A stretch of 64,000 bases of DNA, taken from NCBI GenBank assembly GCA_947313855.1, contig CAMZNS010000032.1, positions 1,306 through 65,305 of the forward strand, read 5' to 3'. The position numbers were made by a program, and so were the translations under genes. Shown piece by piece: positions 1,986-45,370 of this stretch. Every line of letters starts with the position of its first letter. Position 1 is the first letter of the stretch. The stretch is from an uncultured Deferribacteraceae bacterium. GTDB taxonomy: Bacteria > Chrysiogenota > Deferribacteres > CAMZNJ01. The notes beneath the pieces were generated by a model. That model saw only the letters and a program-made list of their open reading frames with translations. It ran no database searches and was not told where the DNA came from.

Positions 1986-3020
1986 GTGAACTATAAATAC
2001 TACAACATGGGCGTTATCGGATCCCCCGCAGCCCACTCCCTCTCCCCCGTACTACACTCCTACCTCCTTCAGGAGCGTGGTCTTGTTGGCGGATACAATA
2101 TTTTCGACGTACCCGAATCACGTATTCGCAAGGTGCTCGACCATGGTGCAATGTTTCACTACAGTGGCTTTAATGTTACCCTGCCGTACAAGAAACATAT
2201 TATGTCCATGTGCCACCATATGGATCCGATAGCGACTAGTATTGGGGCGGTGAATACTGTGAAGCTGAGCACACTTGCTAAAAAAGGGGGGCACCATGGC
2301 TCTGAGTCGCCCCCTGTGACGGCTACCGATAGGGAGCTGGCTTGGCACCATGGCTCTGAGTCGCCCCCTGTGTACACTCTGACAGGCTACAATACCGACG
2401 TTGTAGGGTTTGCACATATGCTACAACACAAAAATATTAATCCTGCTGATCAGAATGTACTAGTATTGGGTGCTGGTGGTGGGGCACGAAGTGTTGTTCA
2501 TCACCTTGATGCAGTTGGTGCTAAGGTTCAGGTATTCAATCGCACTGTTGATACAGCCGTTAGCCTCATTGCAGACATGGGGGCTAACGCCACCATAGCA
2601 ACAGCCGACAACCTCGCTCAAGGTGACTTCTACCTCATCGTTAACACAACATCCTCAGGCGTTCATGGGGAGGCGTTCACGGCTCTCCCTCCAGGTGTTA
2701 ATCTCAAGTTGACCCATGCTGTTGATCTGATTTACACACAAAAAGTTGGGGGAGCTGCAACAGGACTAGCAGGGAGCATTGCCACCCCCTTCCTTAGCCA
2801 CATGGGGGCTGATGTTAGTTGTGACGGTTTGCTTCACCTAATTTATCAGGGTGTGGAGTCGTTTGAGATATTCGTCAGGGATACTGAGTCGCAAAATCTT
2901 GGCACTACCCCTGCAACCCCTGCAACCCCTGCAACTCCTACAACCCCTACAACCCCTGATCCCGAATTCATCGACTACCTTTACGCAAAACTAACTAGAA
3001 TAATAAGTGGCAGACAGTAG
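1986..3020 (+). CDS. aroE: Shikimate dehydrogenase AroE with an internal 20-aa duplicated insertion and a TPATPATPATPTTPTTP C-terminal tail
   Basis: Diagnostic motifs are present: GVIGSPAAHSLSP, NVTLPYK, NTD, and a GAGGGARS Rossmann motif. The start may be the ATG at 2007. Confidence 0.8.
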   Translation: MNYKYYNMGVIGSPAAHSLSPVLHSYLLQERGLVGGYNIFDVPESRIRKVLDHGAMFHYSGFNVTLPYKKHIMSMCHHMDPIATSIGAVNTVKLSTLAKKGGHHGSESPPVTATDRELAWHHGSESPPVYTLTGYNTDVVGFAHMLQHKNINPADQNVLVLGAGGGARSVVHHLDAVGAKVQVFNRTVDTAVSLIADMGANATIATADNLAQGDFYLIVNTTSSGVHGEAFTALPPGVNLKLTHAVDLIYTQKVGGAATGLAGSIATPFLSHMGADVSCDGLLHLIYQGVESFEIFVRDTESQNLGTTPATPATPATPTTPTTPDPEFIDYLYAKLTRIISGRQ

Positions 3021-3099: not shown

Positions 3100-4686
3100 A
3101 TGAATACCTTAACCACAAATCAAGATCCGCAAATAGTAGCTGTTGAGCTAATGGAGCAGTTTGGGCTTCCCGGAGCTGCGTTCGACCTCTTCTCTGACGG
3201 CAATACAACCGCCATCACCATGAAAAGCAGTATCACCAAGCATATTGTAAAGCATCGTATTGCAAAAAATAAGATGATGGCCACAGTCTGCATACTACCC
3301 GCAACAATCGACTCCGATCTGACCGAAGAGGGGCTAACCACATACCTCAACGAACAAGGGATTAAGTATGGCATCAAGAGTAGAGCCATTAGCAAAGTTG
3401 TTCAGATGGTGAAAAACAAAGAACTTGTACTAGACGCCATTGTCGCCGAAGGGAAAGCTCCCGAAGGGGGCGAAGACGCAAAAGTAACCATCTTTTTCCG
3501 CGACCACTCAGCAAGCAAAGCACGTATCGACTCCTCAGGTCGTGCCGATTATAAAAATATCGACAAATTCGTATCGGTTAGAGCTGGCGACAAACTGATG
3601 ACACTACATAAACCTGTTCTAGGTGCACCCGGAATCAATATTGCCGGCGAAGAACTTGTTGCCAAAGGGTTCGACACCATCGATATCACCACTGGCGACA
3701 ACATACGAGTACTAGACAAAGGGGGCAGAATTGTCTACTTCGCCACCAAAAATGGCTACGTAAGCTATGACGCTGTATCATACAAAATCGCCGTTGTTGA
3801 CCTACTAGTCGTAAACACCGTTAGTTACGAAACAGGCAGTATCAACTTCGAAGGATCCGTTTACATCAAAGAAGATGTGTCGAGAGGCTTTAGAGTGAAA
3901 GCAACAGGAGATATCACTATTGCAGGTGTAGTGTCCGACGCAACTCTTATCGCTGGAGGAAGTATTACCATTCAGTCAGGAGTCAAAGCCAAAGGGAAGG
4001 CAACACTTTCTGCTGTGAAAAATATTGAAGTCGGATACCTGGAGCAAGCAAGTATTTACTGCTCTGGAAACCTAACAATTAACCGATACGCATACAATAG
4101 CGACATAAGGTGCAAGGGGGATCTGTTTTGCAGCCGTGAAGGATCGGTCATCTCGGGCACCACTCTCAGCATTCTCGGAAACGCAAGCATATATCAGCTC
4201 GGAAGCCCTAGCGACAAAGCAACAAGGATTAGCATGGGGGTATGGGAAGACAAATCTGCAACAGAGGTGATCGAAAAAGCCTTCGAACTAGAGGCAACAA
4301 TCGAACGACTCTCACTGATTATGCACTATATCTCATCACGTGAGGGAACACTTGGAGAGGTGGGGCGAGATAAATACAAAAAACTATGCCTGACATACAC
4401 AAAACTAATGTCGGATCTGGAAGCGTTGGAAGATCAGTTCTATATCTCAGATAGATTCATAAATTGCCCAAAATCAAAGCTGACAATATTCGGAACAGCG
4501 TACGAAGGGGTAACTATCGCCTTTTTCTCATCGATATTTCGAATTACCGAACAGTTTGCATACACTGTATTCAAATACAACTACCGAACAAAGCAAATAC
4601 TCCGTATGGATATCGATGATGATGCCGATAACGTAGCAGATAGTGCACCACAGGATGCTATCCAAACAGGGGAAACCTCCTCCTAA
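3100..4686 (+). CDS. FapA/DUF342 family protein (flagellar-assembly-protein-A-like, beta-helical repeats)
   Basis: The N-terminal region has a PG.NI.GE...G.D signature. A long run of degenerate G/V/I-rich beta-helix repeats follows (ITIAGVVSDATLIAGGSITIQSGVKAKG...). The C-terminal region is helical. This is a resemblance call only. Confidence 0.55.
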   Translation: MNTLTTNQDPQIVAVELMEQFGLPGAAFDLFSDGNTTAITMKSSITKHIVKHRIAKNKMMATVCILPATIDSDLTEEGLTTYLNEQGIKYGIKSRAISKVVQMVKNKELVLDAIVAEGKAPEGGEDAKVTIFFRDHSASKARIDSSGRADYKNIDKFVSVRAGDKLMTLHKPVLGAPGINIAGEELVAKGFDTIDITTGDNIRVLDKGGRIVYFATKNGYVSYDAVSYKIAVVDLLVVNTVSYETGSINFEGSVYIKEDVSRGFRVKATGDITIAGVVSDATLIAGGSITIQSGVKAKGKATLSAVKNIEVGYLEQASIYCSGNLTINRYAYNSDIRCKGDLFCSREGSVISGTTLSILGNASIYQLGSPSDKATRISMGVWEDKSATEVIEKAFELEATIERLSLIMHYISSREGTLGEVGRDKYKKLCLTYTKLMSDLEALEDQFYISDRFINCPKSKLTIFGTAYEGVTIAFFSSIFRITEQFAYTVFKYNYRTKQILRMDIDDDADNVADSAPQDAIQTGETSS

Positions 4687-4899: not shown

Positions 4900-7317
4900 A
4901 TGAGCGATGGCGATAAAGCAACGAATATTCAAAGCAGAAACCTACCTGTCCTGCCCGTAAAAGATATTGTGATATTCCCACAGATGATTGTCCCCCTTTT
5001 TATCGGTAGGGAGGGGAGTATTTTGGCGGTCAACGAGGCATCTGCCACACCTAGTCGAAGTATCCTTGTGCTTACACAAAAAGATATCTCCATAGACGAT
5101 CCCGCACCCGAAGACATGTTTGATGTGGGGTGCGTTGCCAACATTATGCGTACCCTAAAACTAAACGACGGTCGCATCAAAATCCTTGTTCAAGGTGTAT
5201 CGCGAGCATCGGTCAATAGCATCAAAAAAGAGGGGGGGCACTATGTTTCTGACGTGACCATTGTTGATACTGAGGAAGTTTCTGAAAACGACTTAGTGCG
5301 TGGCGAAGCCTTAATGCGTAGTGTTCGCGACAAACTCGATACCGCCTCCGACCTAGGCAAACCTATCCTCCCCGATCTACTATCGTTTATCGATGGGCTC
5401 AAAGACCAAGACAGACTCGCCGACATGATTGCAAGCAATGTGGGCTTCGGGTTTGAAGACACACAAGAACTACTATCACTACTCAACCCCATGGAACGAC
5501 TAGAACGAATCTCAGAACTACTAAGCCGCGAACTCTCTATTCTAGAAGTACAACACAAAATTATGGTTGACACGCGGGGCGAAATAGACAAATCGCAACG
5601 TGAATACTACCTACGAGAACAGCTCAAAGCCATCCTCAAAGAGCTAGGGGAAGATGAAGCCTTGGAAGAGGAAGTTGAGCGTTTTCGTGAGAAAATATAC
5701 AAATCAAAAATGCCACAAAAAGCCAAAGAAACAGCTCAAAAAGAGGTGAAAAGACTCGCACGAATGAACCAAGACGCCGCCGAAGCCACTGTTGTTCGCA
5801 ACTACCTCGAATGGCTCATCGAACTACCATGGGACGCACATACTAAAAAACAGGTGGCCCTAGACAAAAGCAAAACCATACTCGACTCCGACCATTACGG
5901 ACTCAAAGATGTCAAAGAACGAATACTCGAATTCCTAGCTGTTCTTAGCTTGAAAAATGCCAAATCTATCAAAAGCCCAATAATATGCCTTGTTGGACCC
6001 CCAGGTGTGGGAAAAACATCTCTAGGTGCATCCATCGCAAAAGCAACATCACGAAAATTTGTACGCATTAGCTTGGGAAGTATGCACGATGAATCAGAGA
6101 TCAAAGGACATCGACGTACCTACATCGGAGCAATGCCCGGCAAACTTATTCAGGCGATGAAAACCGCTGGCACTAGCAACCCCGTTATCCTGCTGGACGA
6201 AATCGACAAGGTGAGCTCTAGCTACCGTGGCGACCCATTCTCAGCGTTGCTCGAAGTGCTCGATCCGCAACAAAATCACTCATTCGTAGACAACTACATC
6301 AACATACCCTACGACCTTAGCCGTGTCCTATTCATCGCTACCGCAAACTACATCGGCAACATACCCGCAGCACTACGCGACAGGATGGATATCGTACAGC
6401 TGTCTGGATACACCAACTCGGAAAAACTCAGTATTGCACAGTCATACCTCATCCCAAGGCAACGCGAAGAATCGGGGCTAGGGGATCAGGATATTAGGTT
6501 TTACCCGAAATCACTGGAGTTTATCATCAGCGACTACACTCGCGAAAGTGGTGTGCGTCAGCTTGAACGTGAAATAGGTCGTATTTATCGCAAAATTGCA
6601 CTCAAAAAAGTCACAAAAGAGAAGTTCTCAACCACCATTACCCCCACTGGAGTAGCAAAATACCTCGGCACACCCCTGTACAAACGTGAAGACGAACTTG
6701 TCCACAACGAACTCGGTGTTGTTACCGGTCTTGCATGGACATCGGTTGGCGGAGATGTTTTGTACGTGGAAGCATTACGCTACAAAGGGGGGGGCAAGCT
6801 AAGTATCACGGGCTCCCTGGGGGACGTAATGAAAGAGTCGGCACGGGCAGCACTGAGCTATATCCGCTCCATTAGTGCTGAGCTTGGCATCGACAACAGC
6901 ATGTTTGAAAAATACGACATCCACATACACGTACCCGCTGGGGCTACCCCCAAAGATGGACCCTCAGCAGGTATCACAATCGTAACAGCACTCATCTCCA
7001 TTCTGCAGTGCAAATATGTCAGCCGACACGTTGCCATGACAGGCGAAATAACCCTTCGTGGAAAAGTCTTGCCTATTGGTGGACTCAAAGAGAAAATACT
7101 TGCAGCCAAAATGGTTGGCATCACAACCATTATCATCCCTGAGGGGAACAGAAAAGACGTGGAAAAGATGGACAAAGAGGTTGTGCATGGTGTGAAAATA
7201 ATACCTATCGCCAACTACATGGATATCATGGACAAAGGTGTTTTTGTCGAAAATAGCGAGGATAGTACTGGCAACACTGGGGGCTCTGGGGGCGACAACT
7301 CTGGCGAGGACAAATAG
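4900..7317 (+). CDS. lon: ATP-dependent protease Lon
   Basis: It has a Lon N-terminal domain. The AAA+ Walker A motif is GPPGVGKTS. The protease-domain catalytic Ser motif is PKDGPSAGITIVTAL. Confidence 0.95.
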   Translation: MSDGDKATNIQSRNLPVLPVKDIVIFPQMIVPLFIGREGSILAVNEASATPSRSILVLTQKDISIDDPAPEDMFDVGCVANIMRTLKLNDGRIKILVQGVSRASVNSIKKEGGHYVSDVTIVDTEEVSENDLVRGEALMRSVRDKLDTASDLGKPILPDLLSFIDGLKDQDRLADMIASNVGFGFEDTQELLSLLNPMERLERISELLSRELSILEVQHKIMVDTRGEIDKSQREYYLREQLKAILKELGEDEALEEEVERFREKIYKSKMPQKAKETAQKEVKRLARMNQDAAEATVVRNYLEWLIELPWDAHTKKQVALDKSKTILDSDHYGLKDVKERILEFLAVLSLKNAKSIKSPIICLVGPPGVGKTSLGASIAKATSRKFVRISLGSMHDESEIKGHRRTYIGAMPGKLIQAMKTAGTSNPVILLDEIDKVSSSYRGDPFSALLEVLDPQQNHSFVDNYINIPYDLSRVLFIATANYIGNIPAALRDRMDIVQLSGYTNSEKLSIAQSYLIPRQREESGLGDQDIRFYPKSLEFIISDYTRESGVRQLEREIGRIYRKIALKKVTKEKFSTTITPTGVAKYLGTPLYKREDELVHNELGVVTGLAWTSVGGDVLYVEALRYKGGGKLSITGSLGDVMKESARAALSYIRSISAELGIDNSMFEKYDIHIHVPAGATPKDGPSAGITIVTALISILQCKYVSRHVAMTGEITLRGKVLPIGGLKEKILAAKMVGITTIIIPEGNRKDVEKMDKEVVHGVKIIPIANYMDIMDKGVFVENSEDSTGNTGGSGGDNSGEDK

Positions 7318-7434
7318 TGGCAAATCGCAAAAACACTACCCGACGACACCTACTTAACAATAAATATACATATTCTAAAATTTATCGTTTCACAAGTATG
7401 CTATTAGTAGTATAATGACACTATAAATCAAATC

Positions 7435-8331
7435 ATGTGTAGGTTTTATATGAAAATTATTGCTATTGGTGGCGGAAAAGGTGGCGTAGGCAAAAGCTTT
7501 GTAACATCATCCCTAGGGATGGCACTCACGAAGGCTGGACACAAGACACTACTGGTTGACTGTGATCTCGGAAGTGCCAACCTCCACAACTTTGTTGGCG
7601 TATCAGCACCAACAAATGCCTTATACAACGTTATGCGTGGAGATACAGGGTTCGAAGAAGCCATAATCTCTACACCGTATGGAGTGGACATCCTATGCGG
7701 ATCCGTGGACATGCTGGGGATGGCACATATTACGCGACACGAACGCAAACACCTCCTAAACAGCATACAAAGCTCGAAATACGACTACGCACTCATGGAT
7801 CTTGGAGCCGGAAACTCATTCCATATGGTGGACTTCTTCAACGAAGCTCACATCAAAGTAATGGTTATGACCTCCGAACCAACATCCATCGAAAATACAT
7901 ACGGATTCCTCAAAGTGGCGTTGTATCGTGCGATTGAGCGTGGCTTTGCAGAAACGAACAGTTACGCCGAAATGTGCAAAATATTGCGTAACGCATCACA
8001 CACTTTTGCCGATATCAGAAGTATCCGATCGTTTATCTACAGCATCGATGTGAACGACCTAACCAAACTTGACAACATCATAAACAACTTCCAAGTCTCT
8101 GTTCTAATAAACGTTGTCCACAGCAAAAGCGATCTCACGCTGCTGAGCGGCTTCAAACAGATTATCTTCAACTACCTAGGTATTCATATCGACTTTATCG
8201 GGTTCGTACCCTACGACAAAGTTGTTGTAGACGCAATCAAAGGACAGCAGTCGGTGTATGGCGACTCATTGCACGAAAATATTATCGGGTGCTTTGACTC
8301 GATTTCAGGCAAACTAGCAGCTAGACTTTAG
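7435..8331 (+). CDS. MinD/ParA/FlhG-family P-loop ATPase (deviant Walker A)
   Basis: The deviant Walker A motif is KIIAIGGGKGGVGKSF. A DCD motif is present. The likely start is the ATG at 7450. Confidence 0.8.
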   Translation: MCRFYMKIIAIGGGKGGVGKSFVTSSLGMALTKAGHKTLLVDCDLGSANLHNFVGVSAPTNALYNVMRGDTGFEEAIISTPYGVDILCGSVDMLGMAHITRHERKHLLNSIQSSKYDYALMDLGAGNSFHMVDFFNEAHIKVMVMTSEPTSIENTYGFLKVALYRAIERGFAETNSYAEMCKILRNASHTFADIRSIRSFIYSIDVNDLTKLDNIINNFQVSVLINVVHSKSDLTLLSGFKQIIFNYLGIHIDFIGFVPYDKVVVDAIKGQQSVYGDSLHENIIGCFDSISGKLAARL

Positions 8332-8348
8332 ACGAAAAAGGAGCGGAG

Positions 8349-9470
8349 ATGGCTACGGAAAAAGGACAGACAACAAATACAGCTAATCCGATACTAACAA
8401 GAGCTGCAACTGAAGACTCTGTTCTTCGAAACTACTACTCCGAAACCTACTCGCAGGACAAGAAAGTAGGGCTTCTCGTATTTAGGATAGGGGACGGTGT
8501 TTTTGCCATCGCAAGTCTAAAAACACAAGAAATAATACGCTCTGTGGATATTACAAGAGTTCCACATCTTGAAAAATATATTCTGGGTATCACAAACTTG
8601 AGGGGAAAAATACTACCCATTTGCGACCTCAGATACTTCTTCGGACTGAAAAATACCATCTTCGATAGGGACACAAGGGTTATTGTTGCCAAATTTAACC
8701 AAGGATCGATCGGGTTTGTGGTGGATGCAGTGGTGGATACAATCCACATTGCTGTGTCCTCCTTGGAAAAAAATAATTCATCGGTGTCTTCATTACAATT
8801 CGACGGATTCATCTCAGGCGTATGCAACCATAAAGATGGCATCATATTTCTACTGAATATTCTGAAAGTTGCTGGCATTGAGTCTGCACCGGGGGAAAGC
8901 GATCCACTTGACACCTTCCTGAATATGTTGGGGGACAGGGAGGGTGGTAAGGGGTTGGAACGCTCAGGTGGCGACGGTGGTGGCGACGGTGGTGGCAGCA
9001 GCAACACACTCTGGTACCTCCTCGGACGATACAACCACAGTAACCCCGCAAAACTAACCCTCTACATACTATTCACCATACTCAACCAAGGGGGGTACAT
9101 GTTCGCTCCTTGGCGATGCTCCTCGTGCGGACAGAGCCTCACAGCCGAAAACCAAGATTGCAACACTGCGAGGGGCGTTGCAACCCTAAACCATGACGGC
9201 GAAATGCACTGTGCACAGTGTACGCCACAACCACACACCATTACTGCCACCGATATTGCTAGCTCAAACATCAAGTATGTTCGCACTAGTGTGTTTTTGG
9301 CGTTGCAGAGCTTTTACCACAGCCATAGCTACACATCCCTCGAGGTGGACGCAATACTGGAGCACGAATTACTAGACCTACTGTTTTACCATGGTGCCAA
9401 CGTGTTAGGGTATCAGCTGCACGCCTATCGCCACTACCGACTGCTCATGCCACCACCCAAAGGGGCATAA
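8349..9470 (+). CDS. CheW-domain protein with a ~200-aa C-terminal extension containing a CxxC...CxxC motif
   Basis: The CheW fold signature is VPHLEKYILGITNLRGKILPICDLR...RVIVAKFNQGSIGFVVDAV. The tail contains WRCSSCGQ...HCAQCT. Confidence 0.7.
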   Translation: MATEKGQTTNTANPILTRAATEDSVLRNYYSETYSQDKKVGLLVFRIGDGVFAIASLKTQEIIRSVDITRVPHLEKYILGITNLRGKILPICDLRYFFGLKNTIFDRDTRVIVAKFNQGSIGFVVDAVVDTIHIAVSSLEKNNSSVSSLQFDGFISGVCNHKDGIIFLLNILKVAGIESAPGESDPLDTFLNMLGDREGGKGLERSGGDGGGDGGGSSNTLWYLLGRYNHSNPAKLTLYILFTILNQGGYMFAPWRCSSCGQSLTAENQDCNTARGVATLNHDGEMHCAQCTPQPHTITATDIASSNIKYVRTSVFLALQSFYHSHSYTSLEVDAILEHELLDLLFYHGANVLGYQLHAYRHYRLLMPPPKGA

Positions 9471-22603: not shown

Positions 22604-23759
22604 CAACAACTGCAACTACGACAACAATTCCCATCGAAACAGTGCCGAACAACACGATCCCATGTCGCCCAACCTCCTCTTCATCCGATTCAGCTCCCTT
22701 GGCGATGTACTCCTCACAACAGGGATCATCAAAGCCGCCCACGAAGCCCTCCCCCACGCAACAATCTCAGTCATCACCAAAAGCGAATACTACCACATTT
22801 ACGACGCATGCCCATTTGTGGACAACATCTACACCATACCCAACGGTGTCAGGTTCACCTCCTACCGCCGCCTGCTCCGCCATATCCGCGACAATATCAC
22901 CTTCCACTACATCATCGACCTACACAGCAACACTCGCTCCCACATGCTCGGCATCTGTTTCCGTTCCGCTCGTCTCAAGAAATACAAAAAGAATAGCTTC
23001 GCACGACGTCTCTACGCTAAAACCAAGATAAAGCTTCCCAGTATCGGTAAACATGTTGTTCAGAAGTATTACGCCTGCCTCTACACCACCCTTAAACCCC
23101 TACACAACAGCATTCCTGAGGGGAAACTGCCCCACCCTAAACAGGTCTCCCTCGAGTACCTTGCCCCCCATATCCACAGCGTTGGCAAGCTGAGTAAGGA
23201 GGTTCTCAAGGAGGTGTCGAAATTTTCCGATCAGAGTCGTCCATCGGTTGTTCTAGCCCCTTTTGCGAGCAAGCACACAAAACATATTCAGAATTATACA
23301 CATATTATGCGTAGCCTTGCCGCTGATTACAATGTTGTTCTTGTTGGCGTTTCACACGACTACTCCCCGCTGGACATGACCCTGTATGCCCCCAACAACA
23401 CCACAACTATTGTTGATCTTGTGGGGCGTCTTGAGATCCCCGACCTACTCCAGATTATCAGTACTGCGAACGTCGTTGTTAGTGCCGATTCGGGTATCAC
23501 CCATGCTGCTTCAGCGTTGCAGATCCCCCTTGTGACACTATTTTGCGGAACGGATACGCTCCTTGGGTTTGCCCCGTCGTATGGTATTTACGAAATCCTC
23601 GAGATAAACACCCTGAGCTGTCGTCCATGCAGTATTCATGGTAGGTCTAAGTGTAAGCTTGGCGATTTCCCCTGCTCGACCGGCATCACCCCCGCCATGG
23701 TTATGGAGACGGTTTCCCATGTTATTCAATATAAATATAGGGCACACATGCCGTCCTAG
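22596..23759 (+). CDS. Glycosyltransferase family 9 (second heptosyltransferase-like paralog)
   Basis: The N-terminal motif is LLFIRFSSLGDVLL. The C-terminal motif is SADSGITHAASAL. A CRPC...C..C motif is present. The likely start is the ATG at 22662. Confidence 0.8.
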   Translation: MSNNNCNYDNNSHRNSAEQHDPMSPNLLFIRFSSLGDVLLTTGIIKAAHEALPHATISVITKSEYYHIYDACPFVDNIYTIPNGVRFTSYRRLLRHIRDNITFHYIIDLHSNTRSHMLGICFRSARLKKYKKNSFARRLYAKTKIKLPSIGKHVVQKYYACLYTTLKPLHNSIPEGKLPHPKQVSLEYLAPHIHSVGKLSKEVLKEVSKFSDQSRPSVVLAPFASKHTKHIQNYTHIMRSLAADYNVVLVGVSHDYSPLDMTLYAPNNTTTIVDLVGRLEIPDLLQIISTANVVVSADSGITHAASALQIPLVTLFCGTDTLLGFAPSYGIYEILEINTLSCRPCSIHGRSKCKLGDFPCSTGITPAMVMETVSHVIQYKYRAHMPS

Positions 23760-23935
23760 GAGACGGTTTCCATACGGTTTCCATACGGTTCCCATATTGT
23801 TCCCATATTATTCAATATAAATATAGGGCACACATGCCGTCCTAGGAGACGGTTTCCATACGGTTCCCATACGGTTCCCATACGGTTCCCATATTGTTCA
23901 ATATAAATATAGGGCACACATGCCTATTAATCCAC
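23690..23935. repeat. Threefold direct repeat of the 3' end of the GT9 gene (unit TTCAATATAAATATAGGGCACACATGCC plus GGTT(T/C)CCATAC sub-repeats), followed by (CCCTATTG)4 at 23938-23970
   Basis: Direct reading. The first copy contains the native stop codon. Copies 2 and 3 lie downstream of it. Confidence 0.85.
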
Positions 23936-25454: not shown

Positions 25455-25575
25455 CTGTTGCGAACAACACACCGCCTCCCGCACCGCCTCCCACACCGCC
25501 TCCCGCACCGCCTCCCACACCGCCGCTCACACCGCCTCCCACACCGCCGCTCACACCGCCGCCCACACTGAGAGC
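25455..25575. repeat. Intergenic tandem 15-mer CACCGCCTCCCRCAC, about 8 copies
   Basis: Direct reading. It generates a spurious Gly-rich minus-strand ORF. Confidence 0.85.
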
Positions 25576-25626: not shown

Positions 25627-26781
25627 ATGCCTTACAGCGATGAGCGTAACCAGCATGAACATAGCCATAGCCATAACCATAACCATAGTAATCGTGGCGA
25701 ACTTGTGTCCAGCCTCCTACCTGTGCACATCGTTCATACTGCCGACACACTCTCCACAGCGATGGCTCATGCCGTCATGGAGCACATAACGCGTATGGTT
25801 CATGAGAGCTCGACCGTGAACGCACCCGTGAACACACCCGCGAACACGAGCTCGCCCGTGAACAACACACCCGTGAGCACGAGCTCGCCAACAAATAGCA
25901 CTGATAACACTAGCAACACTGACAGTCGCATTGTTGTCCACCAATGTATTCGCGACTACGACTTCTTCCAACATATCACACATATTGCCACCAGCATTGC
26001 CAATCCATCCGTTAATGGGTCTATCATCGCAATCGACATGCACGGGATTCAGAGCTTCCACGCCGCCGTTGCTGTGCCCGGAATAGTTTCTGCACAGTGC
26101 TACGACGAGTTTACCAGCCAAATGACACGTGCACACAATGATGCCAAATGTATTACCCTTGCGTCGTCCATACTGTCGCCAAGCCTAGGGAGTCGCATTG
26201 CTGAGTTGTTCCTTACGACAGAGTTTGAGGGTGGGCGACATGCCGACAGGTTGAGGCTTCTTCATGGCATCCGGAGCAGTGCGACCGCGACCGCGACCGC
26301 AACCGCAACCGCAACCGCAACCGCAACCGCAACCGCAACCGCAACCGCAACCACGTTGATTGCCATCGGTTGCGATCACAGTGCACTCCAACACAAGAAT
26401 GAGATTAAGGCATACATCGAAGGGATGACGGTTCCGGGTAGCTCGAGTCATGTTTGCAAAGTTGTGGATGTTGGCACAAATACCACTGAAAGTGTACATT
26501 ACCCGAACTATGGGGAGGCAGTGGGTCGCTTGGTTGCCTCAGGCGAGGTTCACCTAGGGATTGTAATTTGTGGCACAGGTGTGGGGATAGTGAATGCTGC
26601 GAGCAAGGTTGATGGCGTGCGTAGCACCCTAGCGTTACACCCTAGCACGGCATACATTTCGCAATCGATGTACAGCTGCAACGTACTCGCCATAGGTGCA
26701 CGTACGACAGGTGTGGGTGTGGCGTTGGAGCTTGTTGAGTCGTTTGTTACGTCATGGCACCAGTATCGCCTAGCCCACTAG
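25627..26781 (+). CDS. rpiB: Ribose-5-phosphate isomerase B (RpiB/LacAB family) carrying an N-terminal partial duplication, a His-rich leader and an (Ala-Thr)12 linker
   Basis: The C-terminal 150 aa is a complete RpiB (IAIGCDHSA...GIVICGTGVGIVNAASKV...NVLAIGARTTG). Residues ~130-220 repeat the second half of RpiB, including the C-terminal signature FLTTEFEGGRHADRL. Confidence 0.7.
   Translation: MPYSDERNQHEHSHSHNHNHSNRGELVSSLLPVHIVHTADTLSTAMAHAVMEHITRMVHESSTVNAPVNTPANTSSPVNNTPVSTSSPTNSTDNTSNTDSRIVVHQCIRDYDFFQHITHIATSIANPSVNGSIIAIDMHGIQSFHAAVAVPGIVSAQCYDEFTSQMTRAHNDAKCITLASSILSPSLGSRIAELFLTTEFEGGRHADRLRLLHGIRSSATATATATATATATATATATATATTLIAIGCDHSALQHKNEIKAYIEGMTVPGSSSHVCKVVDVGTNTTESVHYPNYGEAVGRLVASGEVHLGIVICGTGVGIVNAASKVDGVRSTLALHPSTAYISQSMYSCNVLAIGARTTGVGVALELVESFVTSWHQYRLAH
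26281..26355 (+). repeat. In-frame hexanucleotide repeat (GCRACC)12 encoding (Ala-Thr)12 inside rpiB
   Basis: Direct reading. Confidence 0.9.
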
Positions 26782-28970: not shown

Positions 28971-31900
28971 CTAAATATAGTTCATTAGGGATAGACCTAG
29001 TATTCTGCTTGTTGCTTGCAGTGCTGTTTCGTATATCAGCATGGACTGTTGATAGTTATTCGTTATGTTGTAGATATCGTTTTCGGTAGATCCTAGGTAG
29101 TTGGATCGGAACTGTTCTAGGTTGAGGTTTATCCGTTCGTTAAACGATATCTGGGAGCTTACAATATTCCCTCTGTTACCTATATCGGCATAAATGCTAT
29201 TTACCTGAGAGGCAATTTTGTCGAATATGTCAATTTCCTGTTGTACTCCTGATCCGAGTGCGGTGGTGAAGTTGTTGCCACGCATTACACTCCCTGAGTC
29301 GAACCCCAAGGAGATTCCGTCTGCTACGAAATAGTTTTGGTTGGCAGTTTTGATGTTAATGTTGTCCACTATTCTGCCTGCGGAATCGGTAATGGCAACG
29401 CTCAAGGACTCCCCTGCACGTGCAAACCCTAGCACTATGTTGTTTTCAGCCCTTGGATCGTGGTTCCCCTCGACAAACCCCACTGTTGTGTTGGCTTTGT
29501 TGACCACAAATCCAAACCCTTTATCCCCTGTGCGTACGGCGGTGAAGAATGTGTCAAGACCGGCTGTGGCAAGCTCTGTTGCCAGATCGTCCATGAGGTT
29601 GTTGAAGCCTGTGGTGCTGTAGTCTTTGTTGGGGATGGTAATGGATTGTGTCTGTACTTGCGTCCCGACCATGTATCGGAAAGTTAGTGTTCGTTCGTCC
29701 ACAGATGCTTTTGACAGATCGAGGCTTACCATGTCTGCAACGGGGCTGATGAGGTCAGTACCTTTGTATCCTACGCCTAGGGGGTTGTTGGGGGAGGCGG
29801 ACAGATACCCTGTGCCACTAGTGTACGTTGGCGTAATGGTGTCGCCACTACCTGCAAACGTTATCAGTGTATTGAGCACTGCTGAGGCTGATATCTGGTT
29901 GTTTATCTCTGTGGCGAGTGCATCGACGTCGCCATAGTTGTTGGCTGGTATGGTGATGGTGTCGCTCACCCAAGTATTTGTTCCGAGGTCGAAGGTTTTG
30001 ATGGTCATATCTTGTGCAACGGCAATATTTAGGTTGACGGGGAAAGGATCCCCTGTTGGCTTCCCCGCATCGAGGGCAATAATTGCCGCATCACTTTGTG
30101 CCGCTAGGTTTATGTTGCTTGTGCCCGCCCCAGACTTTACCACGAGGGTGCCACCATTGTCGTGTGCTACTATCCCTACTGCTTTGAATGCGGGGTCGTT
30201 ATTGATTGCGTCGATGATAAGTTTGTTTTGCTGTTTGAGGGTCATACCTGTGGGGTAGCTTGTTGCGGGGATTTGAACGGGGATGGTGCGAAGTGTGTCT
30301 TTGTCGTTATCCCATACCTCCACGTCGAACAGGATATCGCCTAGGGCGGGGCTAACGAGGGTGGTGTTGGCGTACTCCAAGCGAAGCTCGTCTTGGAGGT
30401 ACGACTCGGGGGACGAAGCGAACTGATTAACATTGAATCCCCATGTATCGTTGTTGTAGCCGGTGTATTGCCCTGAGAAGAATGCCTTTGCGAGGAGATC
30501 GTTGTTCGGATCGAGGGCCCATTCGCTTGGTGACAGGTCGCCATTGTCGCGAACATTGTTGCTCAAGGCGTCTTCTAGGTTTTGGATGGCGTTAAATATG
30601 TTTACGTTACTGCCCTGCTCCGTAATATGCATATCCCCTAGGCGAAGGTTGTTGCCACCACTTAGTGCGATGGTGAAGTTCCTGTCCACGCCTATGTTTG
30701 CTGCATCAATGGGGGGAGTCCACGAGATCCCCTGCTTCAGATCCACAGGACCACCCTTGTAGTCGGCAACTGTACCGCTAGCTATGGGACCACCCTTTTT
30801 GCTTACGATATTGTAGGTTAAGTCGAACCGACCACCAACGTTGTCTATGCGATAGCTAACATCCCAGTCCATGTCCCCTTGACCATCGTAAGAGCCACTT
30901 ATAATTTGGTCGGTGTACCCCAACGAGCGATCGATACCTCTGTTGTCGGGGGTCATGCTCAAGGATAGGCGACTGTCGGAACCGCTGTACAAATCCTCCA
31001 CAACAATCTGACCGACGCTGTTGATGGAAACGATTGCTGAGCCGTTGTAGAAGTTGTTGGCGAAGTTGAGGAGATCCTCGAACGATTTGTTGACAGGGGC
31101 GGAGTAGTCGCGACCCAAGGTTGCACTGTGCAGGGTGCCGTTGGACATGATGGACAGGGATGTGTTCTCGCCGTAATTCTCATTCTCGAAGGTGTAGGTT
31201 ATGTCGTAAACGTCGGCAACACCAGTGGCAACAACGTGGGATTGGATGTTAAACCCTGTGTCCATACTCATCTGCTTGTTTATCATAAACTGAATATCTA
31301 ACTCTGTCGAACCCGCAGGGATAGCTAACGTGTAGTCGTTGCCGTTGATGGTGTAGTTGTATGTACCCGAAGAGAGGTTTGTGTTGGTAGCGGTTAGTTG
31401 CAAAAACTCGTTGGCACCCGGTACCGTAAACGGACGAGTCGACAGGTTGAACTCGTTATCTTTCCCGTAGGTGAGGTTCCCCGTGTAGTCCTGAAACTTG
31501 TCAAACCCCAAAGCGTTATCGATGTCGCCAAACGCTGAGAGGGAAACCTTATCCCCAACCTCATTGGTCATTATCATAAGTTGCTGTCCGTCGGCAACAC
31601 TACGCAATTCGCCAGATATATCCACAACATGGCTAGTATCTTGAGGCGTGGGGGATAGTAGGGATGACCCAGCAAACGTTGCTGTTTTCATGGCAACGTT
31701 GAAAGCGTCGGAAAGATTTTCCACACTACCATAATTCTTCGCCTCAAGCTCTACCTTGTAGTAACTACTGCCATAACGAACATAAGTAATACGTGCACTA
31801 TCAGGGAGATCGGCTAAGTTAACATTAACCTCACTGGTGCCCGACACCCGTGCATTCCCCACAGGATGACCATAATGATCGCTTGCCCGAAACTGAATCG

Positions 31901-32906
31901 CATCACCGGGACTACTCTTCACACCATCCAATCCCGAAAACACGGAGGCTAAGTTTATTGGGAGACCGCTGTAGGTGTTGAGAAACGAACTCTGCAACGT
32001 CTTGTACGTGGACATGAATAAGGAGTTGCCTGAAACATTCAATGCCACATTGGAGTTGCTCCCTATCTGCGACACGATCTCACTGGAATCACCTTTGTAC
32101 GTAATATCCGAACCCGCAACATAGGTGAAATGGTATTCGGTGAAAAGGTGCGTCGTATTTTCGGGTAGCTTTATGGCCATGCCACGACCTAGGTTGACCA
32201 CCTTGCCAGGCTCGTATGCCACTGATGTTGAGAGCATCAACTTGTTGCCGTCACTCGTTGCATCATCGCTAGAGTTGGAGTCGATGGGTACGGCATTCCC
32301 GTATTTGTCGTACAGGGTAAGCTCTGCCATACCGTTGGAAATTGTTACCCCCATGCGATAGTCGCCCTGAGGGAGCTCCCGCACGTCGCTGAATGTATCT
32401 GTGGCGAACAAAGCCCCGTCGCTGTTGTTGCTAGAGCGAATGTTCTTCACATCGTTGCTACCCTCAACAAACGGCGGTTCACCTGTGCCAAAACCACCAA
32501 AAATATAGTGATCAAGGTAATCGGTGTTGGACAAACCAACAACCTGTTGCATAATGGACTTAATCGCCGAAGCCATGGAGCTCCTATCGCTAGCACTAAG
32601 GGTATCGTTGGCACCCTGTATGGCGTAGTCGTTTTTGACAGTATTGATAATGTTCACTAGGGAACCAACGGCGGAATCCGACTCTGTCAGCCAGTGTGAG
32701 GCTTTGTCCGCATTGTCGCCATAGGATTGCAGAATATTTATTTGTTGCTGTGTTTTGAGGTAGAACGAGTAGGATCGAACGTCGTTTTCAGGGTTAATCA
32801 ATTGGCGACCATTTAAAACACGCATGTAGTCTTGTTGCATGCGTTGGTTTGTGGACTGCATATGTGCTGCCCCTGTGTTGTACAAGCTGTTGAATGTAAC
32901 TCTCAT
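28971..32906 (-). CDS. flgL: Flagellar hook-associated protein 3 FlgL, giant form (1311 aa)
   Basis: The N-terminal flagellin-like helices are MRVTFNSLYNTGAAHMQSTNQRMQQ. The C-terminal helices are QEIDIFDKIASQVNSIYADIGNRGNIVSSQISFNERIN...SRILGLSLMNYI. About 900 aa of central insertion lie between them. Confidence 0.7.
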   Translation of the reverse strand: MRVTFNSLYNTGAAHMQSTNQRMQQDYMRVLNGRQLINPENDVRSYSFYLKTQQQINILQSYGDNADKASHWLTESDSAVGSLVNIINTVKNDYAIQGANDTLSASDRSSMASAIKSIMQQVVGLSNTDYLDHYIFGGFGTGEPPFVEGSNDVKNIRSSNNSDGALFATDTFSDVRELPQGDYRMGVTISNGMAELTLYDKYGNAVPIDSNSSDDATSDGNKLMLSTSVAYEPGKVVNLGRGMAIKLPENTTHLFTEYHFTYVAGSDITYKGDSSEIVSQIGSNSNVALNVSGNSLFMSTYKTLQSSFLNTYSGLPINLASVFSGLDGVKSSPGDAIQFRASDHYGHPVGNARVSGTSEVNVNLADLPDSARITYVRYGSSYYKVELEAKNYGSVENLSDAFNVAMKTATFAGSSLLSPTPQDTSHVVDISGELRSVADGQQLMIMTNEVGDKVSLSAFGDIDNALGFDKFQDYTGNLTYGKDNEFNLSTRPFTVPGANEFLQLTATNTNLSSGTYNYTINGNDYTLAIPAGSTELDIQFMINKQMSMDTGFNIQSHVVATGVADVYDITYTFENENYGENTSLSIMSNGTLHSATLGRDYSAPVNKSFEDLLNFANNFYNGSAIVSINSVGQIVVEDLYSGSDSRLSLSMTPDNRGIDRSLGYTDQIISGSYDGQGDMDWDVSYRIDNVGGRFDLTYNIVSKKGGPIASGTVADYKGGPVDLKQGISWTPPIDAANIGVDRNFTIALSGGNNLRLGDMHITEQGSNVNIFNAIQNLEDALSNNVRDNGDLSPSEWALDPNNDLLAKAFFSGQYTGYNNDTWGFNVNQFASSPESYLQDELRLEYANTTLVSPALGDILFDVEVWDNDKDTLRTIPVQIPATSYPTGMTLKQQNKLIIDAINNDPAFKAVGIVAHDNGGTLVVKSGAGTSNINLAAQSDAAIIALDAGKPTGDPFPVNLNIAVAQDMTIKTFDLGTNTWVSDTITIPANNYGDVDALATEINNQISASAVLNTLITFAGSGDTITPTYTSGTGYLSASPNNPLGVGYKGTDLISPVADMVSLDLSKASVDERTLTFRYMVGTQVQTQSITIPNKDYSTTGFNNLMDDLATELATAGLDTFFTAVRTGDKGFGFVVNKANTTVGFVEGNHDPRAENNIVLGFARAGESLSVAITDSAGRIVDNINIKTANQNYFVADGISLGFDSGSVMRGNNFTTALGSGVQQEIDIFDKIASQVNSIYADIGNRGNIVSSQISFNERINLNLEQFRSNYLGSTENDIYNITNNYQQSMLIYETALQATSRILGLSLMNYI

Positions 32907-38179: not shown

Positions 38180-40159
38180 TTAGTTAAACGCCCCCGCTGC
38201 TTCGAGTATGCTTACAATGTTCACGCTATTGTACAACCCTGCCACACGCCTTGCTGTAAACCCTGCGTCGTTGGTATGAGTAACGTCGGCACCGTAAACG
38301 AGTAGTTGTTGTACTAGCTGTTGGTTGTTGTTTGTTACCCCCCATATTAGTGGTGAGTCGCCGGCAATGTTGTAGATATTCGGGTTCGCACCATTTTTCA
38401 GCAGTAGGTTGACGATGGTGAGTGAGTCGCGACTTGCGGCTAGTATGAGTGGTGTGTTCCCTTCAACATTTTGTGTGTTCAGGTTGGCACCAGCATCAAC
38501 TAGCATGGACACAATACCGTATTGATCTTGTGCGATTGCGAGGAAGATGGCGGTGTTGCCTGTTTCGTTGTCCACAATATCGGGGGAGGCACCCAACCTT
38601 AGGGCACGCTGTACTTTGGCGATGTTGCCCGTATTGGCACCATCAAACATCATGGCATTGTATTCGGTTAGTTGGCTGTAGTATTCGGAGAGGATATTTT
38701 GTATTACGGGATAGCCGTTCTGTTCAGCAATGTCGTATGCTGTGGAGCGTTCGTTGTTTTGAGTAAGTGGGTTCGGTTTGTTTTCGATAACGAGGCGAAC
38801 CATATCGAGGAACCCATTGGAAGACGCAACCATGAGTGGTGTGTTCCCGTCGGAGTTGACGATGTCGACCATGGCACCGTCGTTGAGTGCTTCACGTGCG
38901 GTGGCAATGCTGTTATTCATTACGGCAAGCATGAGGGGGGTGTTGCCTTGATTGTCTTTTGTTTCGAGGTTGGCACCGTAGTTGACTAACGTACGCATGG
39001 TGAATACGTTGTCGTTGTAGGATGCGAGGGAGAGGGCTGTTCGACCATTGTTGTCCCGTGTTTCGATATCAGTGGAGTAGGAGGCTAGTATGTTTGCTGT
39101 GGCGGAGTTGCCCACACTGGCAGCAATCATGAGGGGGGTACGCCCCTGAGCGTCCACCGTATCTATCTGTGCACCGCTAGCAATGAGCAGGTTAACAATG
39201 TCGGAGTCGCCACGGTATGATGCGTACGCCAAAACGGACATCTCTTGGTTATCCTTGCTGTTGGGGCTAGCACGAAGGCGTAGTAGCATCTCCACAACGT
39301 CTTCATGGGAGTACACAACAGCATACATGAGGGCGGTTTGCCCCCGAGCGTTGGTTCGGAAGATGTCCGCACCCTGTTCGATGAGGAATGTTGCTGTTTC
39401 GTATTGGTTGTTGGCGAGGGCGTACATGAGAGCTGTGTTGCCTAAGGCATCCACGGTGTTGATGCTCAGGGTGGACACCTCGATACTGCGAGCAAGGGCA
39501 TCAAGCTGACCGCGAGACGCCGCATAAAGTAGGGGGCTCTTAGGGGACAAACCAACATCTATGTTGACCAAACTCTTCTCTTGAACCACAGTGTAACGCT
39601 TAGTCAACGTTGCAATACTGTTGGAGTCGTCTAGGTTGCTCTTCATACCCATACGCTCACGCATACTGTAAGCGTTAGCTGAGTCCTCAATGTAGAGGAT
39701 CGTCTGAACGGTGTCGGAACGCTCACCAATGGTTTCACTCGAAGTGAGCACGTTGTCCACAACAACAAGCTTACGAAGCAGGGTTGACTGTGGTATCTGG
39801 TAAATATTGCCGTAATCGAAGTCCACCGCAATCCCGATACGATTAACATCTGTCCCCAAGGCATTGTTGTTGATGAACCACTCACCACGACGACGAACAA
39901 GATCTATGGACACGTCGCGATAACCACGCTTCTCCAAAACAACATGATAGCTGTCGCCAGAGATGCGAACCCATGAAGGGAGTGCCGCAACTTTATTGTT
40001 GATAAAATATTCAGCATTCTTTTTGGATGGTGGCTTGGTAAGGCTTCGAACATCAGACGAAAAATATGAACAAGACGCTATTATGGGCAAAATTAACATC
40101 ACCAAACCCAACTTCAAAAACCTCAACATAACAAGAACCCTCCGCACACGGACACACAA
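38180..40159 (-). CDS. Ankyrin-repeat lipoprotein (about 12 ANK repeats), co-directional with and immediately upstream of flgI
   Basis: The lipobox is LILPIIASC. There are repeated ANK consensus units (G.TALMYA....V..LL..GA..N..D..G.TPL). The likely start is the Met at 40129. Confidence 0.8.
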   Translation of the reverse strand: MCVRVRRVLVMLRFLKLGLVMLILPIIASCSYFSSDVRSLTKPPSKKNAEYFINNKVAALPSWVRISGDSYHVVLEKRGYRDVSIDLVRRRGEWFINNNALGTDVNRIGIAVDFDYGNIYQIPQSTLLRKLVVVDNVLTSSETIGERSDTVQTILYIEDSANAYSMRERMGMKSNLDDSNSIATLTKRYTVVQEKSLVNIDVGLSPKSPLLYAASRGQLDALARSIEVSTLSINTVDALGNTALMYALANNQYETATFLIEQGADIFRTNARGQTALMYAVVYSHEDVVEMLLRLRASPNSKDNQEMSVLAYASYRGDSDIVNLLIASGAQIDTVDAQGRTPLMIAASVGNSATANILASYSTDIETRDNNGRTALSLASYNDNVFTMRTLVNYGANLETKDNQGNTPLMLAVMNNSIATAREALNDGAMVDIVNSDGNTPLMVASSNGFLDMVRLVIENKPNPLTQNNERSTAYDIAEQNGYPVIQNILSEYYSQLTEYNAMMFDGANTGNIAKVQRALRLGASPDIVDNETGNTAIFLAIAQDQYGIVSMLVDAGANLNTQNVEGNTPLILAASRDSLTIVNLLLKNGANPNIYNIAGDSPLIWGVTNNNQQLVQQLLVYGADVTHTNDAGFTARRVAGLYNSVNIVSILEAAGAFN

Positions 40160-43597: not shown

Positions 43598-43731
43598 CAA
43601 CTTACGAACACAACTTACGAACACAACTTACGAACACAACTTACGAACACAACTTACGAACGCGACTTACGAACACAACTTACGAACGCAACTTACGAAC
43701 GCAACTTACGAACGCAACTTACGAACGCGAC
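43598..43731. repeat. Intergenic tandem 13-mer CTTACGAAC(A/G)C(A/G)A, about 10 copies, in the 5' region of the PHP gene and just downstream of ruvB
   Basis: Direct reading. The unit length is not a multiple of 3. Confidence 0.9.
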
Positions 43732-45005
43732 GAAGACGGTGTCCAAGGTACGCCAAGATGTGCATATGCCTGCTCAGTGGCAACCCGTCCACGTGGCGTT
43801 TTATGCACAAAACCTAAATAAATAAGGTAAGGCTCAATAACATACTCCACCGTGACCCTGTCCTCCGAAAGCATGGACGCCATCGTCTCAAGACCCACCG
43901 GTGCCCCTTTATACACCTCTATCATTGCACGCAAATAACCCACATCTGCCGTCGTAAGACCGATGGGATCAACGCCGATACGATTCATACCCTCTTGTGC
44001 GATGGACTTCGTAATCTTGCCACCATTGTAAACGTCGGCAAAATCGCGAATACGATTAAGGGTGCGAAGGGCTATGCGAGGCGTGCCACGTGAACGACTA
44101 CCTATTTCGATAGCAGCATCAGCATCTAAAGTGGCGATACTAGAACTACTCTGAGCAGCATTCAACACGATAGTAGCAAGCTCCTCATGTGTGTAGTACT
44201 CAAGACGCATAATAATGCCAAACCGATCCCGAAGGGGGGAAGTGAGCATACCAGCACGCGTTGTCGCACCAATAAGGGTGAACGGCGGGAGATCCATGGT
44301 AACAGTGCGAGCAGCAGGACCCTGACCGATGATGATGTCCAAACGGTAGTCCTCCATGGCAGGGTAAAGGAGCTCCTCAACCGATGGATGAAGGCGATGG
44401 ATCTCGTCGATAAATAAAACGTCGCCAGCGTTGAGGTTGGTCAAGATGGCCGCCAAGTCGCCCTGCTTTTCGATGGTAGGACCTGTGGTAGTGCGGATTG
44501 TGGTGCCCATTTCGTTGGCGATAATGTTCGCAAGGGTGGTTTTCCCTAACCCTGGGGGACCATAAAACAGTGTGTGATCCAACGGCTTCTCACGCCGACG
44601 CGCTGCTTCGATGTAAACCTTGAGGTTGCCAACAACATGGGACTGACCGATGTACGTGCTGAAACTTTGGGGTCGTGTGCTGATGTGTGCATTTATCGTG
44701 GGATCTGCCCACGTATCATCGGCACCGTCAGCGTCGTAACCAGAGCCGCCAGCATCGTAACCAAAGCCGTCAGCATCGTAACCCGAGCCGTCAGCATCGT
44801 AGCCAGAACCGCCAGCATCGTAACCCGAGCCGCCAGCATCGTAACCAGAACCGCCAGCATCGTAACCCGAGCCGTCAGCATCGTAGCCAGAACCGCCAGC
44901 ATCGTAACCCGAGCCGCCAGCATCGTAACCAGAACCGCCAGCATCGTAACCCGAGCCGTCGCCTTTCGTATCCCTATTCTTTTCCATGGAAGAAGTATAC
45001 CCCAT
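43719..45005 (-). CDS. ruvB: Holliday junction branch-migration helicase RuvB with an N-terminal about 16-copy (GSGYDAG)-type repeat extension
   Basis: The RuvB core has Walker [12 protein letters not shown], the motif [11 protein letters not shown] and sensor motifs. The only in-frame Met codons lie upstream of the repeat array, so the repeats are translated if the gene is intact. Confidence 0.9.
44722..44960 (-). repeat. In-frame 15-nt tandem repeat (about 16 copies) encoding GSGYDA(G/D)G at the ruvB 5' end
   Basis: Direct reading. The unit length of 15 preserves the frame. Confidence 0.9.
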
Positions 45006-45087: not shown

Positions 45088-45370
45088 GTTGCTTGCTTGC
45101 GTTACGTTGCTTGCTTGCGTTACGTTGCTTGCTTGCGTTGCTTGCTTGCTTGCTTGCGTTACGTTGCTTGCTTGCGTTGCTTGCTTGCTTGCGTTACGTT
45201 GCTTGCTTGCGTTGCTTGCTTGCTTGCTTGCGTTACGTTGCTTGCTTGCGTTGCTTGCTTGCTTGCTTGCTTGCGTTACGTTGCTTGCTTGCGTTACATT
45301 CCCACCCGCGTTACTTGCTTGCTTGCGTTACGTTGCTTGCTTGCGTTACATTCCCGCCCGCGTTGCCCGC
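45088..45370. repeat. Intergenic tandem array of about 18-mer GTTGCTTGCTTGCGTTAC units with GCTTGC sub-repeat variation, about 280 nt, immediately upstream of ruvB
   Basis: Direct reading. It generates several spurious Leu/Ala/Cys-rich ORFs in the track. Confidence 0.9.

Follow-up and report, generated by a model that had tools for sequence, protein, structure and literature searches.

In a 64,000-nucleotide (nt) stretch of DNA from an uncultured Deferribacteraceae bacterium, called the window throughout, a gene for a P-loop ATPase of 293 amino acids (aa) (7450..8331, + strand) is followed by an open reading frame (ORF) of 373 aa (8349-9470, +) whose N-terminal part contains a CheW domain. 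The first-pass annotation had read the two as a ParC/ParP-like pair, that is, as homologues of the ATPase and the CheW-like adaptor that position chemotaxis arrays. Our results suggest that they belong to an undescribed module of the Deferribacterota, composed of an FlhG-derived ATPase switch and a CheW(-CheZ) scaffold, which would be analogous, not homologous, to ParC/ParP; we regard the case for and against this reading as evenly balanced. Of the earlier interpretation, the analogy is retained and the homology is given up. The two genes have the same orientation and are probably co-transcribed, and the gap between them is indeed short, although it measures 17 nt and not 18.

The pairing is conserved. 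In 17 of 17 Deferribacterota loci, the ATPase gene lies directly 5' of a gene for an extended CheW protein, which in most loci carries a CheZ-like phosphatase by fusion or has one encoded by the following gene. When loci were looked up from the ATPase side, all eight homologues had the extended CheW gene directly 3' (L001, L002, L089, L006, L007, L170, L171, and L172), and when the CheW protein was the starting point, each of the nine closest metagenomic scaffolds had a family ATPase directly 5' (L008, L090-L096, and L101). More distant canonical CheW proteins of 150-190 aa were found without an upstream family ATPase. Conservation within the lineage, which had been suggested as a check, was thus confirmed both in the sister assemblies and in the wider set of Deferribacterota contexts.

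Denitrovibrio (L006) has DUF2062, the ATPase, an extended CheW protein of 328 aa, and a separate CheZ-like gene; Deferribacter (L007) has Lon, DUF2062, the ATPase, and a CheW-CheZ fusion of 553 aa; and Calditerrivibrio (L172) and the loci L170 and L171 have HSP20, Lon, DUF2062 (except in L171), the ATPase, and CheW-CheZ proteins of 533-682 aa. Lon is encoded immediately or nearly 5' in L007, L090, L101, L170, L171, L172, and the sister assemblies of the window lineage. The small membrane-protein gene DUF2062 abuts or overlaps the ATPase start (L006 9562-9999; L007 9569-10000; L170 7518-8000; L172 7566-7997) and is missing from the window lineage and from L171. Its product may serve to hold at the membrane an ATPase that lacks an evident targeting helix. 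Genes for CheA, CheB, CheY, or methyl-accepting chemotaxis proteins (MCPs) were not found within 8-10 kb of the pair, either in the window or in the eight genomes looked up from the ATPase side, where Lon or DUF2062 lies upstream.

An ATPase of the FlhG/MinD branch

The deviant Walker A motif reported for the ATPase ORF (7435-8331, +) is present as GGGKGGVGKS (7471..7500, +), K10 being the signature lysine and K15 the P-loop lysine, and is invariant in family alignments of 12 and of 43 sequences. It is accompanied by a switch I motif of the DxDLGxAN type, DCDLGSANLH, and by the Walker B motif DLGAG. The mechanical ORF opens at 7435; the ATG at 7450 is the likelier start, because the homologues open with M(A)EII..GKGG. 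The protein is 100% identical to P0001 from a sister assembly in which the partner gene is intact, and every homologue at 39-47% identity comes from the Deferribacterota.

In a sequence search against solved structures, FleN came out on top with 91 bits, followed by archaeal MinD and FlhG, the alignments covering aa 2-156 only, and ParA/Soj proteins were absent at E<1e-5. An AlphaFold2 model built from 43 sequences reached a pLDDT (predicted local distance difference test) of 90 and contains a helical insert of ~45 residues at aa ~170-213. A Foldseek search with this model placed FleN 5j1j first (E 7e-18, template-modelling scores 0.73/0.86), then FlhG 4rz2 and MinD, with Soj at rank 43. Judged by sequence and predicted fold, the ATPase is a member of the FlhG/FleN-MinD branch and lies off the ParA/ParC branch. 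It does not reach the NCBIfam MinD equivalogs (minD_bact 63.7 bits, cutoff 212.9; minD_arch 85.6 bits, cutoff 201.75), and MinE was not detected beside any family member.

FlhG, also known as FleN or YlxH, is a MinD-like regulator of flagellar number and placement, and it is the closest solved relative of the window ATPase in sequence and fold, sharing with it the deviant Walker A, the DxDLGxAN motif, and the switch II motif EPTSxxxxY. The identity to an flhF-linked FlhG is 28% over 157 aa, with the FlhG-type MinD-like fold and motifs in place. A family hidden Markov model separates full-length members (448-508 bits) from most orphan FlhG-like ATPases (127-265 bits), from flhF-adjacent FlhG (77-164 bits), and from a ParC-like ATPase (29 bits). 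In an unbootstrapped neighbour-joining tree, the family falls within the orphan clade, which is sister to canonical FlhG. The comparator FlhGs and the orphans were obtained partly from a profile scan of genome contigs with the ATPase alignment, and no Deferribacterota were among the matches listed. Among these matches, the orphan FlhG-like ATPases of ~300-400 aa (L009-L038) come from Nitrospirota, Spirochaetota (Treponema, Salinispira), Myxococcota, Bdellovibrionota, and SAR324; none of this clade lies beside flhF, and only that of Salinispira (L010) lies within a che-like cluster.

Several features set the family apart from canonical FlhG. The gene flhF adjoins none of the eight loci looked up from the ATPase side, within flanks of 8-10 kb (the nine metagenomic loci are mostly short-flanked), as against ~34 comparator FlhGs with flhF immediately adjoining. 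The motif DQAxxLR, which is the N-terminal FlhF-activating segment of FlhG, is carried by four of six comparator FlhGs (L023, L033, L069, and L072) and is absent from the family, whose proteins open 7-9 residues ahead of the P-loop. At the other end, the family terminates in ...CxDDIRxxIxxKL, without a tail of the FLKRLF type and with a last helix at aa 276-292 in the model; all six comparators possess a C-terminal amphipathic helix or tail, and in the family a helix for membrane targeting is not evident. The ~45-residue insert is a further difference from FlhG. The label 'FlhG' that public sources (JGI, NCBI) attach to the homologues is probably wrong. The first-pass annotation had counted it against its own reading if the ATPase clustered with MinD or FlhG next to a canonical minE or flhF; the branch is indeed that one, and neither neighbour was found in the flanks covered.

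The scaffold family and its chimeric copy in the window

The N-terminus of the scaffold has a CheW/SH3-like fold, as indicated by the match of the sister scaffold P0122 to solved CheW structures (E 5e-16), and binding to receptor tips and CheA is predicted from it. It is not the canonical CheW of a che operon, an identity that the first-pass annotation had named as counting against its reading: intact orthologues are 328-682 aa long, bear C-terminal extensions, and lie outside che operons, and the NCBIfam CheW equivalog gives 69 bits against a cutoff of 260.

Past the CheW domain, the sister scaffolds P0122, P0123, and P0124 contain low-complexity TDAST repeats, then a short helix and a ~90-aa tail, both conserved. 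The helix carries the motif (I/L)DxLIAxELxxRE followed by a run of lysines, is present in one or two copies in the linker, and is the sole element of the extension that the window lineage shares with other Deferribacterota. Among 5917 six-frame ORFs from 169 loci, this motif occurs in 12, all of which are scaffolds beside the ATPase. It occurs once or twice in two of three further relatives, and L171 has only a variant outside the pattern. It is missing from five CheW-CheZ fusions that have no ATPase. These fusions, of 408-442 aa, come from other metagenomic lineages (L097 4944-6245; L132 2673-3908; L153 2275-3501; L158 2531-3826; L169 836-2164); they show a canonical FQDLTGQ site and a DDLLxEFGF tail, they have neither the FlhG-like ATPase nor the linker motif, and four of the five are encoded close to a canonical cheW. 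A description of CheW-CheZ fusions, or of the pairing of an ATPase with such a scaffold, was not found in the searchable literature.

The C-terminal domain of the other Deferribacterota scaffolds is, by sequence, a CheZ-like phosphatase. It carries the active-site motif FQD(I/L)TEQ and a terminal peptide DxLLxxFGL, and it matches CheZ in Pfam (E 1e-5, just under the Pfam threshold) and in NCBIfam (E 1e-5). A profile of the domain has E. coli CheZ 1KMI as its best PDB match (E 5e-7), in an alignment that spans the active site. CheZ is known in Deferribacteres (PMC12887009). The window lineage has lost this domain, and the TDAST repeats and the ~90-aa conserved tail have taken its place. A pairing of 'ADQYPQK' in that tail with 'FQDITEQK', proposed by MAFFT, was rejected as evidence of homology because hhalign of the tail against the CheZ profile was negative. 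An AlphaFold2 model of the intact sister scaffold P0123 was unusable (four sequences, pLDDT 31).

In the window itself, the ORF at 8349-9470, preceded at 7 nt by a ribosome-binding site AAGGAG, is a hybrid of two genes. The first-pass annotation was right about the ORF and its CheW domain, and mistaken in treating it as a single CheW protein. Nine database proteins match it and form two unrelated sets, one (P0122, of 456 aa, with P0123 and P0124, of 431-464 aa) matching the first ~205-215 residues, the other (P0125 and P0126, of 303-307 aa, with a CxxC..CxxC pattern) matching the last ~160; an exact look-up of the hybrid protein itself (P0121) gave no record. The 5' fragment of the scaffold gene (8349..8990, +; ~214 codons) is 96-97% identical to P0122 aa 1-205 and includes the CheW domain (aa 42-174; 8472..8870, +; Pfam PF01584, 108.6 bits), with its invariant columns and its NLRGK motif. 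It is fused in frame to the 3' half of an unrelated gene of the P0125/P0126 family, possibly RecO-like (8995..9470, +), such that ORF aa ~205-371 align to P0125 residues 127-304. A RecO identity for this second parental gene was not accepted; its one indication is a sub-threshold Pfam RecO_N match (E 2e-3), with nothing in NCBIfam or the PDB. The junction repeat GGTGGCGACGGTGGTGGCGAC (8961..9010, +), which encodes GGDGGGDGGG, is common to both parental genes.

The DNA agrees with this picture. The window is collinear with the sister cheW locus L001 (97% identity) up to nt 8988, and from nt 8995 it is collinear with L004, a different contig of the same sister assembly that bears the CxxC..CxxC gene. 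The assembly that holds the window is a sibling of GCA_947313785.1, GCA_947313805.1, and GCA_947313825.1. All three sister assemblies have FapA, Lon, the ATPase, and an intact scaffold (431-464 aa), followed by coaE on the opposite strand; the sister CxxC gene stands in a separate locus, whose downstream genes match the window from 9502 onward. The missing halves of the two parental genes were not found anywhere else within the window. Because short tandem repeats abound in the genome and the join lies inside a shared repeat, the fusion may have arisen as an assembly chimera or by real recombination, and an assembly chimera is the most likely origin. The window copy of the scaffold ends ahead of the conserved helix motif. 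The 373-aa 'CheW protein', a chimera that arose at a low-complexity repeat, serves as a caution for reading such ORFs.

Tandem repeats are abundant in the window, with 31 Tandem Repeats Finder rows at a score of at least 80, both intergenic and intragenic. Sites include 43598-43726, 44724-44958, 45088-45347, 23709-23924, and 25468-25568, and examples are a 21-nt unit repeated 11 times in the 5' part of the ruvB ORF and (TTGC)x47. Together with the TDAST and GGDGGG repeats in proteins, they point to a repeat-prone genome, a likely cause of assembly breaks and chimeras.

Proposed module and alternative explanations

We propose that the first gene product, a member of the FlhG/MinD branch from a paralogue-like clade apart from flhF-linked FlhG, acts as an ATP-dependent dimerising switch, which would work without an FlhF-activating N-terminus and without an obvious membrane-targeting helix. 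The CheW domain of the second gene product would insert into chemoreceptor arrays through receptor tips and CheA's P5 domain. The helix motif in the linker may dock onto the ATPase or stimulate it, since it is found only beside the ATPase and is absent from CheW-CheZ fusions without one. A C-terminal phosphatase of the CheZ type, acting on phosphorylated CheY (CheY-P), would be supplied in most members either by fusion or by the next gene. The module would thereby fasten to the arrays an adaptor that bears a phosphatase, and would place the adaptor, or the arrays themselves, under an ATPase-controlled switch of localisation or assembly. The version of the window lineage would keep the ATPase, the CheW domain, and the motif, with CheZ swapped for repeats and a novel tail. 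We advance only tentatively the more specific proposal of an independently evolved, FlhG-derived system, in which the orphan ATPase binds the helix motif of the CheW-CheZ protein, organises the arrays, and fixes the CheY-P phosphatase to them.

Several points weigh against the module. The 17 contexts are not phylogenetically independent, and the ATPase tree is a neighbour-joining tree with no bootstrap values. As 5' neighbours, Lon and DUF2062, a membrane protein, are conserved to the same degree, and either could be the real partner of the ATPase; the link between ATPase and scaffold is circumstantial, drawn from adjacency and from the co-occurrence of the motif. The ATPase might still be the only FlhG of the phylum, flhF having been sought in the flanks of the loci. 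The scaffold tail of the window lineage has no Pfam hit to CheZ and an hhalign probability below 1%, and may differ in function from the other Deferribacterota scaffolds. If the junction is real, the module is non-functional in this genome.

That the genes are a true orthologue pair of ParC/ParP, with a pole-anchored ParA-like ATPase and a ParP adaptor tethering arrays, is highly improbable and already contradicted at the level of homology, even though the order of an ATPase and then a CheW-domain protein, the short spacer, and a partner that is no canonical single-domain CheW all fit it. In ParP, a ParC-binding domain at the N-terminus is joined by a proline-rich linker to a CheW-like (AIF) domain at the C-terminus (PMC5706961). 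As a comparator we used L103, an architecture-defined stand-in for the Vibrio and Pseudomonas sequences. This metagenomic contig carries a compact trio of overlapping genes (286-2514) for, in this order, a CheW of 159 aa, an ATPase of the ParA/Soj type (259 aa), and a 305-aa ParP-like protein. In the last, an N-terminal segment leads through a P/E/V-rich linker to a CheW domain at the C-terminus, which is the published ParP order. The L103 ATPase, with KGGSGKTT and DMDPQG, matches ParA/Soj structures at 125-159 bits and resembles the window ATPase in the P-loop alone (39 residues, 29 bits). ParC is likewise of the ParA/Soj type (KGGxGKTT, DxDPQG), in contrast to the GKGGVGKS and DCDLGSANLH of the FlhG/MinD-type window ATPase. 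The domain order of the partner is also reversed, since the CheW domain of the scaffold is N-terminal and the extension C-terminal, and the scaffold usually bears CheZ, unlike ParP; the finding that the extension of the relatives is mostly a CheZ-like phosphatase further weakens the homology first proposed. Finally, parC-parP lies inside the che operon, in the order cheA/cheB ... parC parP cheW, whereas the module pair follows lon and none of the eight ATPase-side genomes places it inside a che operon. By sequence, the window pair appears homologous to ParC/ParP in neither component and may be a functional analogue. The two systems share a ParA/MinD-superfamily ATPase encoded 5' of a multi-domain CheW-like protein able to enter arrays (Vibrio, Pseudomonas; PMC5706961; bioRxiv 10.1101/2025.10.27.684771) and, likely, the logic of an ATPase combined with an array adaptor. 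Because the pair is genuine, stands outside che operons, and is conserved across the phylum, a cargo-adaptor relation to arrays is a reasonable functional analogy.

The remaining explanations concern the ATPase by itself or the state of the locus. It is unlikely that the ATPase is simply the FlhG of the phylum, its adjacency to the CheW-CheZ gene reflecting co-regulation of motility genes and no physical partnership. FleN and FlhG are its closest solved proteins, its homologues carry the FlhG name, and fliN, fliP, and fliQ lie 6-9 kb 5' in Deferribacter and L171; against this stand the absence of flhF from the flanks of the eight ATPase-side loci, the lack of any N-terminal extension and of an evident C-terminal amphipathic helix like that of the comparators, the separate clade, and a linker motif found only where the ATPase is present. 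An ATPase serving Lon or DUF2062 in a membrane or proteostasis role, with the CheW-CheZ gene as an unrelated downstream passenger, seems quite unlikely to us. The order HSP20-Lon-DUF2062-ATPase is kept in Deferribacter, Calditerrivibrio, and L170, L090 has HSP20-Lon 5' of the ATPase, and where DUF2062 lies directly 5', its stop codon in most cases touches or overlaps the start of the ATPase gene. Yet DUF2062 is missing in the window lineage and L171, and Lon in Denitrovibrio, while the CheW scaffold is always present, and in the window Lon and the ATPase have a promoter-like site between them. Decay of the module, in which recombination between GGDGGGD-coding repeats and erosion in a repeat-rich, probably host-associated lineage destroyed the scaffold gene and orphaned the ATPase, we likewise hold to be unlikely. 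It would account for the in-frame junction within a repeat common to both genes, in a genome full of short tandem repeats that encodes a 659-aa ankyrin protein and in a lineage that had already lost the CheZ domain. However, the gene is intact and has a conserved tail in three sister assemblies, the ATPase is identical to a sister copy with an intact partner, joins at short repeats are a common error of metagenome assembly, and a real event would have cost the genome the second gene as well.

Other known systems resemble the proposed module in part. In PpfA/TlpT of Rhodobacter sphaeroides, an ATPase partitions chemosensory clusters through a partner that is an array component; PpfA differs in being of the ParA type and in using the nucleoid as matrix, and its partner is a cytoplasmic chemoreceptor. 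MinD4 of Haloferax volcanii, which like the module ATPase belongs to the MinD branch rather than the ParA branch, is implicated in placing the machinery for motility and chemotaxis. PMC11407121 lists it among positioning ATPases. It differs in being archaeal, is not known to have an adjoining gene for a CheW-domain partner, and shows distant similarity. Holding the CheY-P phosphatase at a defined site, as the scaffold fusion would do, is known from the targeting of CheZ to arrays or poles, by CheA-short in E. coli and from ChePep-CheZ in Helicobacter (PMC7750401, PMC3143842). Unlike these, the module would target CheZ by covalent fusion to CheW together with an ATPase partner, and the window lineage has no CheZ domain.

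The surrounding window and implications

Upstream of the pair, the + strand carries an xerC/D-like integrase (63-794), ispG (815-1870), aroE (1986-3020), FapA/DUF342 (3100-4686), and the Lon protease (4900-7317), the last being the phylum-conserved 5' neighbour of the module. FapA does lie two genes 5' of the ATPase, as annotated at first; the suggested link to it does not extend outside the lineage, as relatives have HSP20-Lon-DUF2062 there. The 117-nt spacer between Lon and the ATPase contains a candidate sigma-70-like promoter (7389..7416, +; TTCACA, a 16-nt spacer, TATAAT) that matches the consensus at 11 of 12 positions, in a region that is overall not richer in promoter-like sites than shuffled sequence.

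The observation that the pair stands alone held up: no cheA or MCP gene adjoins it, and no che, MCP, flhF, or min genes were found in a Pfam scan that covered most of the large ORFs of the window. The window encodes flgH, flgI, flgK, flgN, a giant protein with a flagellin N-terminal domain, and rpoN; the organism is therefore flagellated. The giant protein is a 1311-aa ORF (28971-32906, -) between flgK/flgN and flgH, with the flagellin N-terminal domain as its sole hit, and may be FlgL- or flagellin-like.

Other features of the window were recorded alongside. Between 10001 and 26000, the composition of the strands is biased to an unusual degree: in 2-kb steps, GC skew lies between -0.2 and -0.34 and AT skew is as high as +0.46, independent of gene strand. 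The 659-aa protein encoded at 38180-40159 (-) consists almost entirely of ankyrin repeats and hints at a host-associated lifestyle of this divergent Deferribacterota-like lineage. Long repeat-containing N-terminal extensions precede both the RpiB/LacAB domain (aa 245-376 of 384) of the ORF at 25627-26781 (+) and the RuvB domains (from aa ~111 of 428) of the ORF at 43719-45005 (-).

To our knowledge, the examples so far of ATPases that position chemotaxis arrays are ParA-type proteins of Proteobacteria (ParC, PpfA). A module of the FlhG/MinD branch that spans a phylum would show the convergent recruitment of another ATPase lineage to the same cargo, by way of an adaptor that has the domain order opposite to that of ParP and usually carries CheZ. 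If the orphan ATPase does bind the helix motif and hold the phosphatase at the arrays, the module would be a third, convergent ATPase solution for array positioning and the first to couple a phosphatase physically. Our findings suggest a direct route to phosphatase localisation, and they provide a short candidate ATPase-docking motif that is open to testing in culturable bacteria such as Denitrovibrio, Deferribacter, and Calditerrivibrio.

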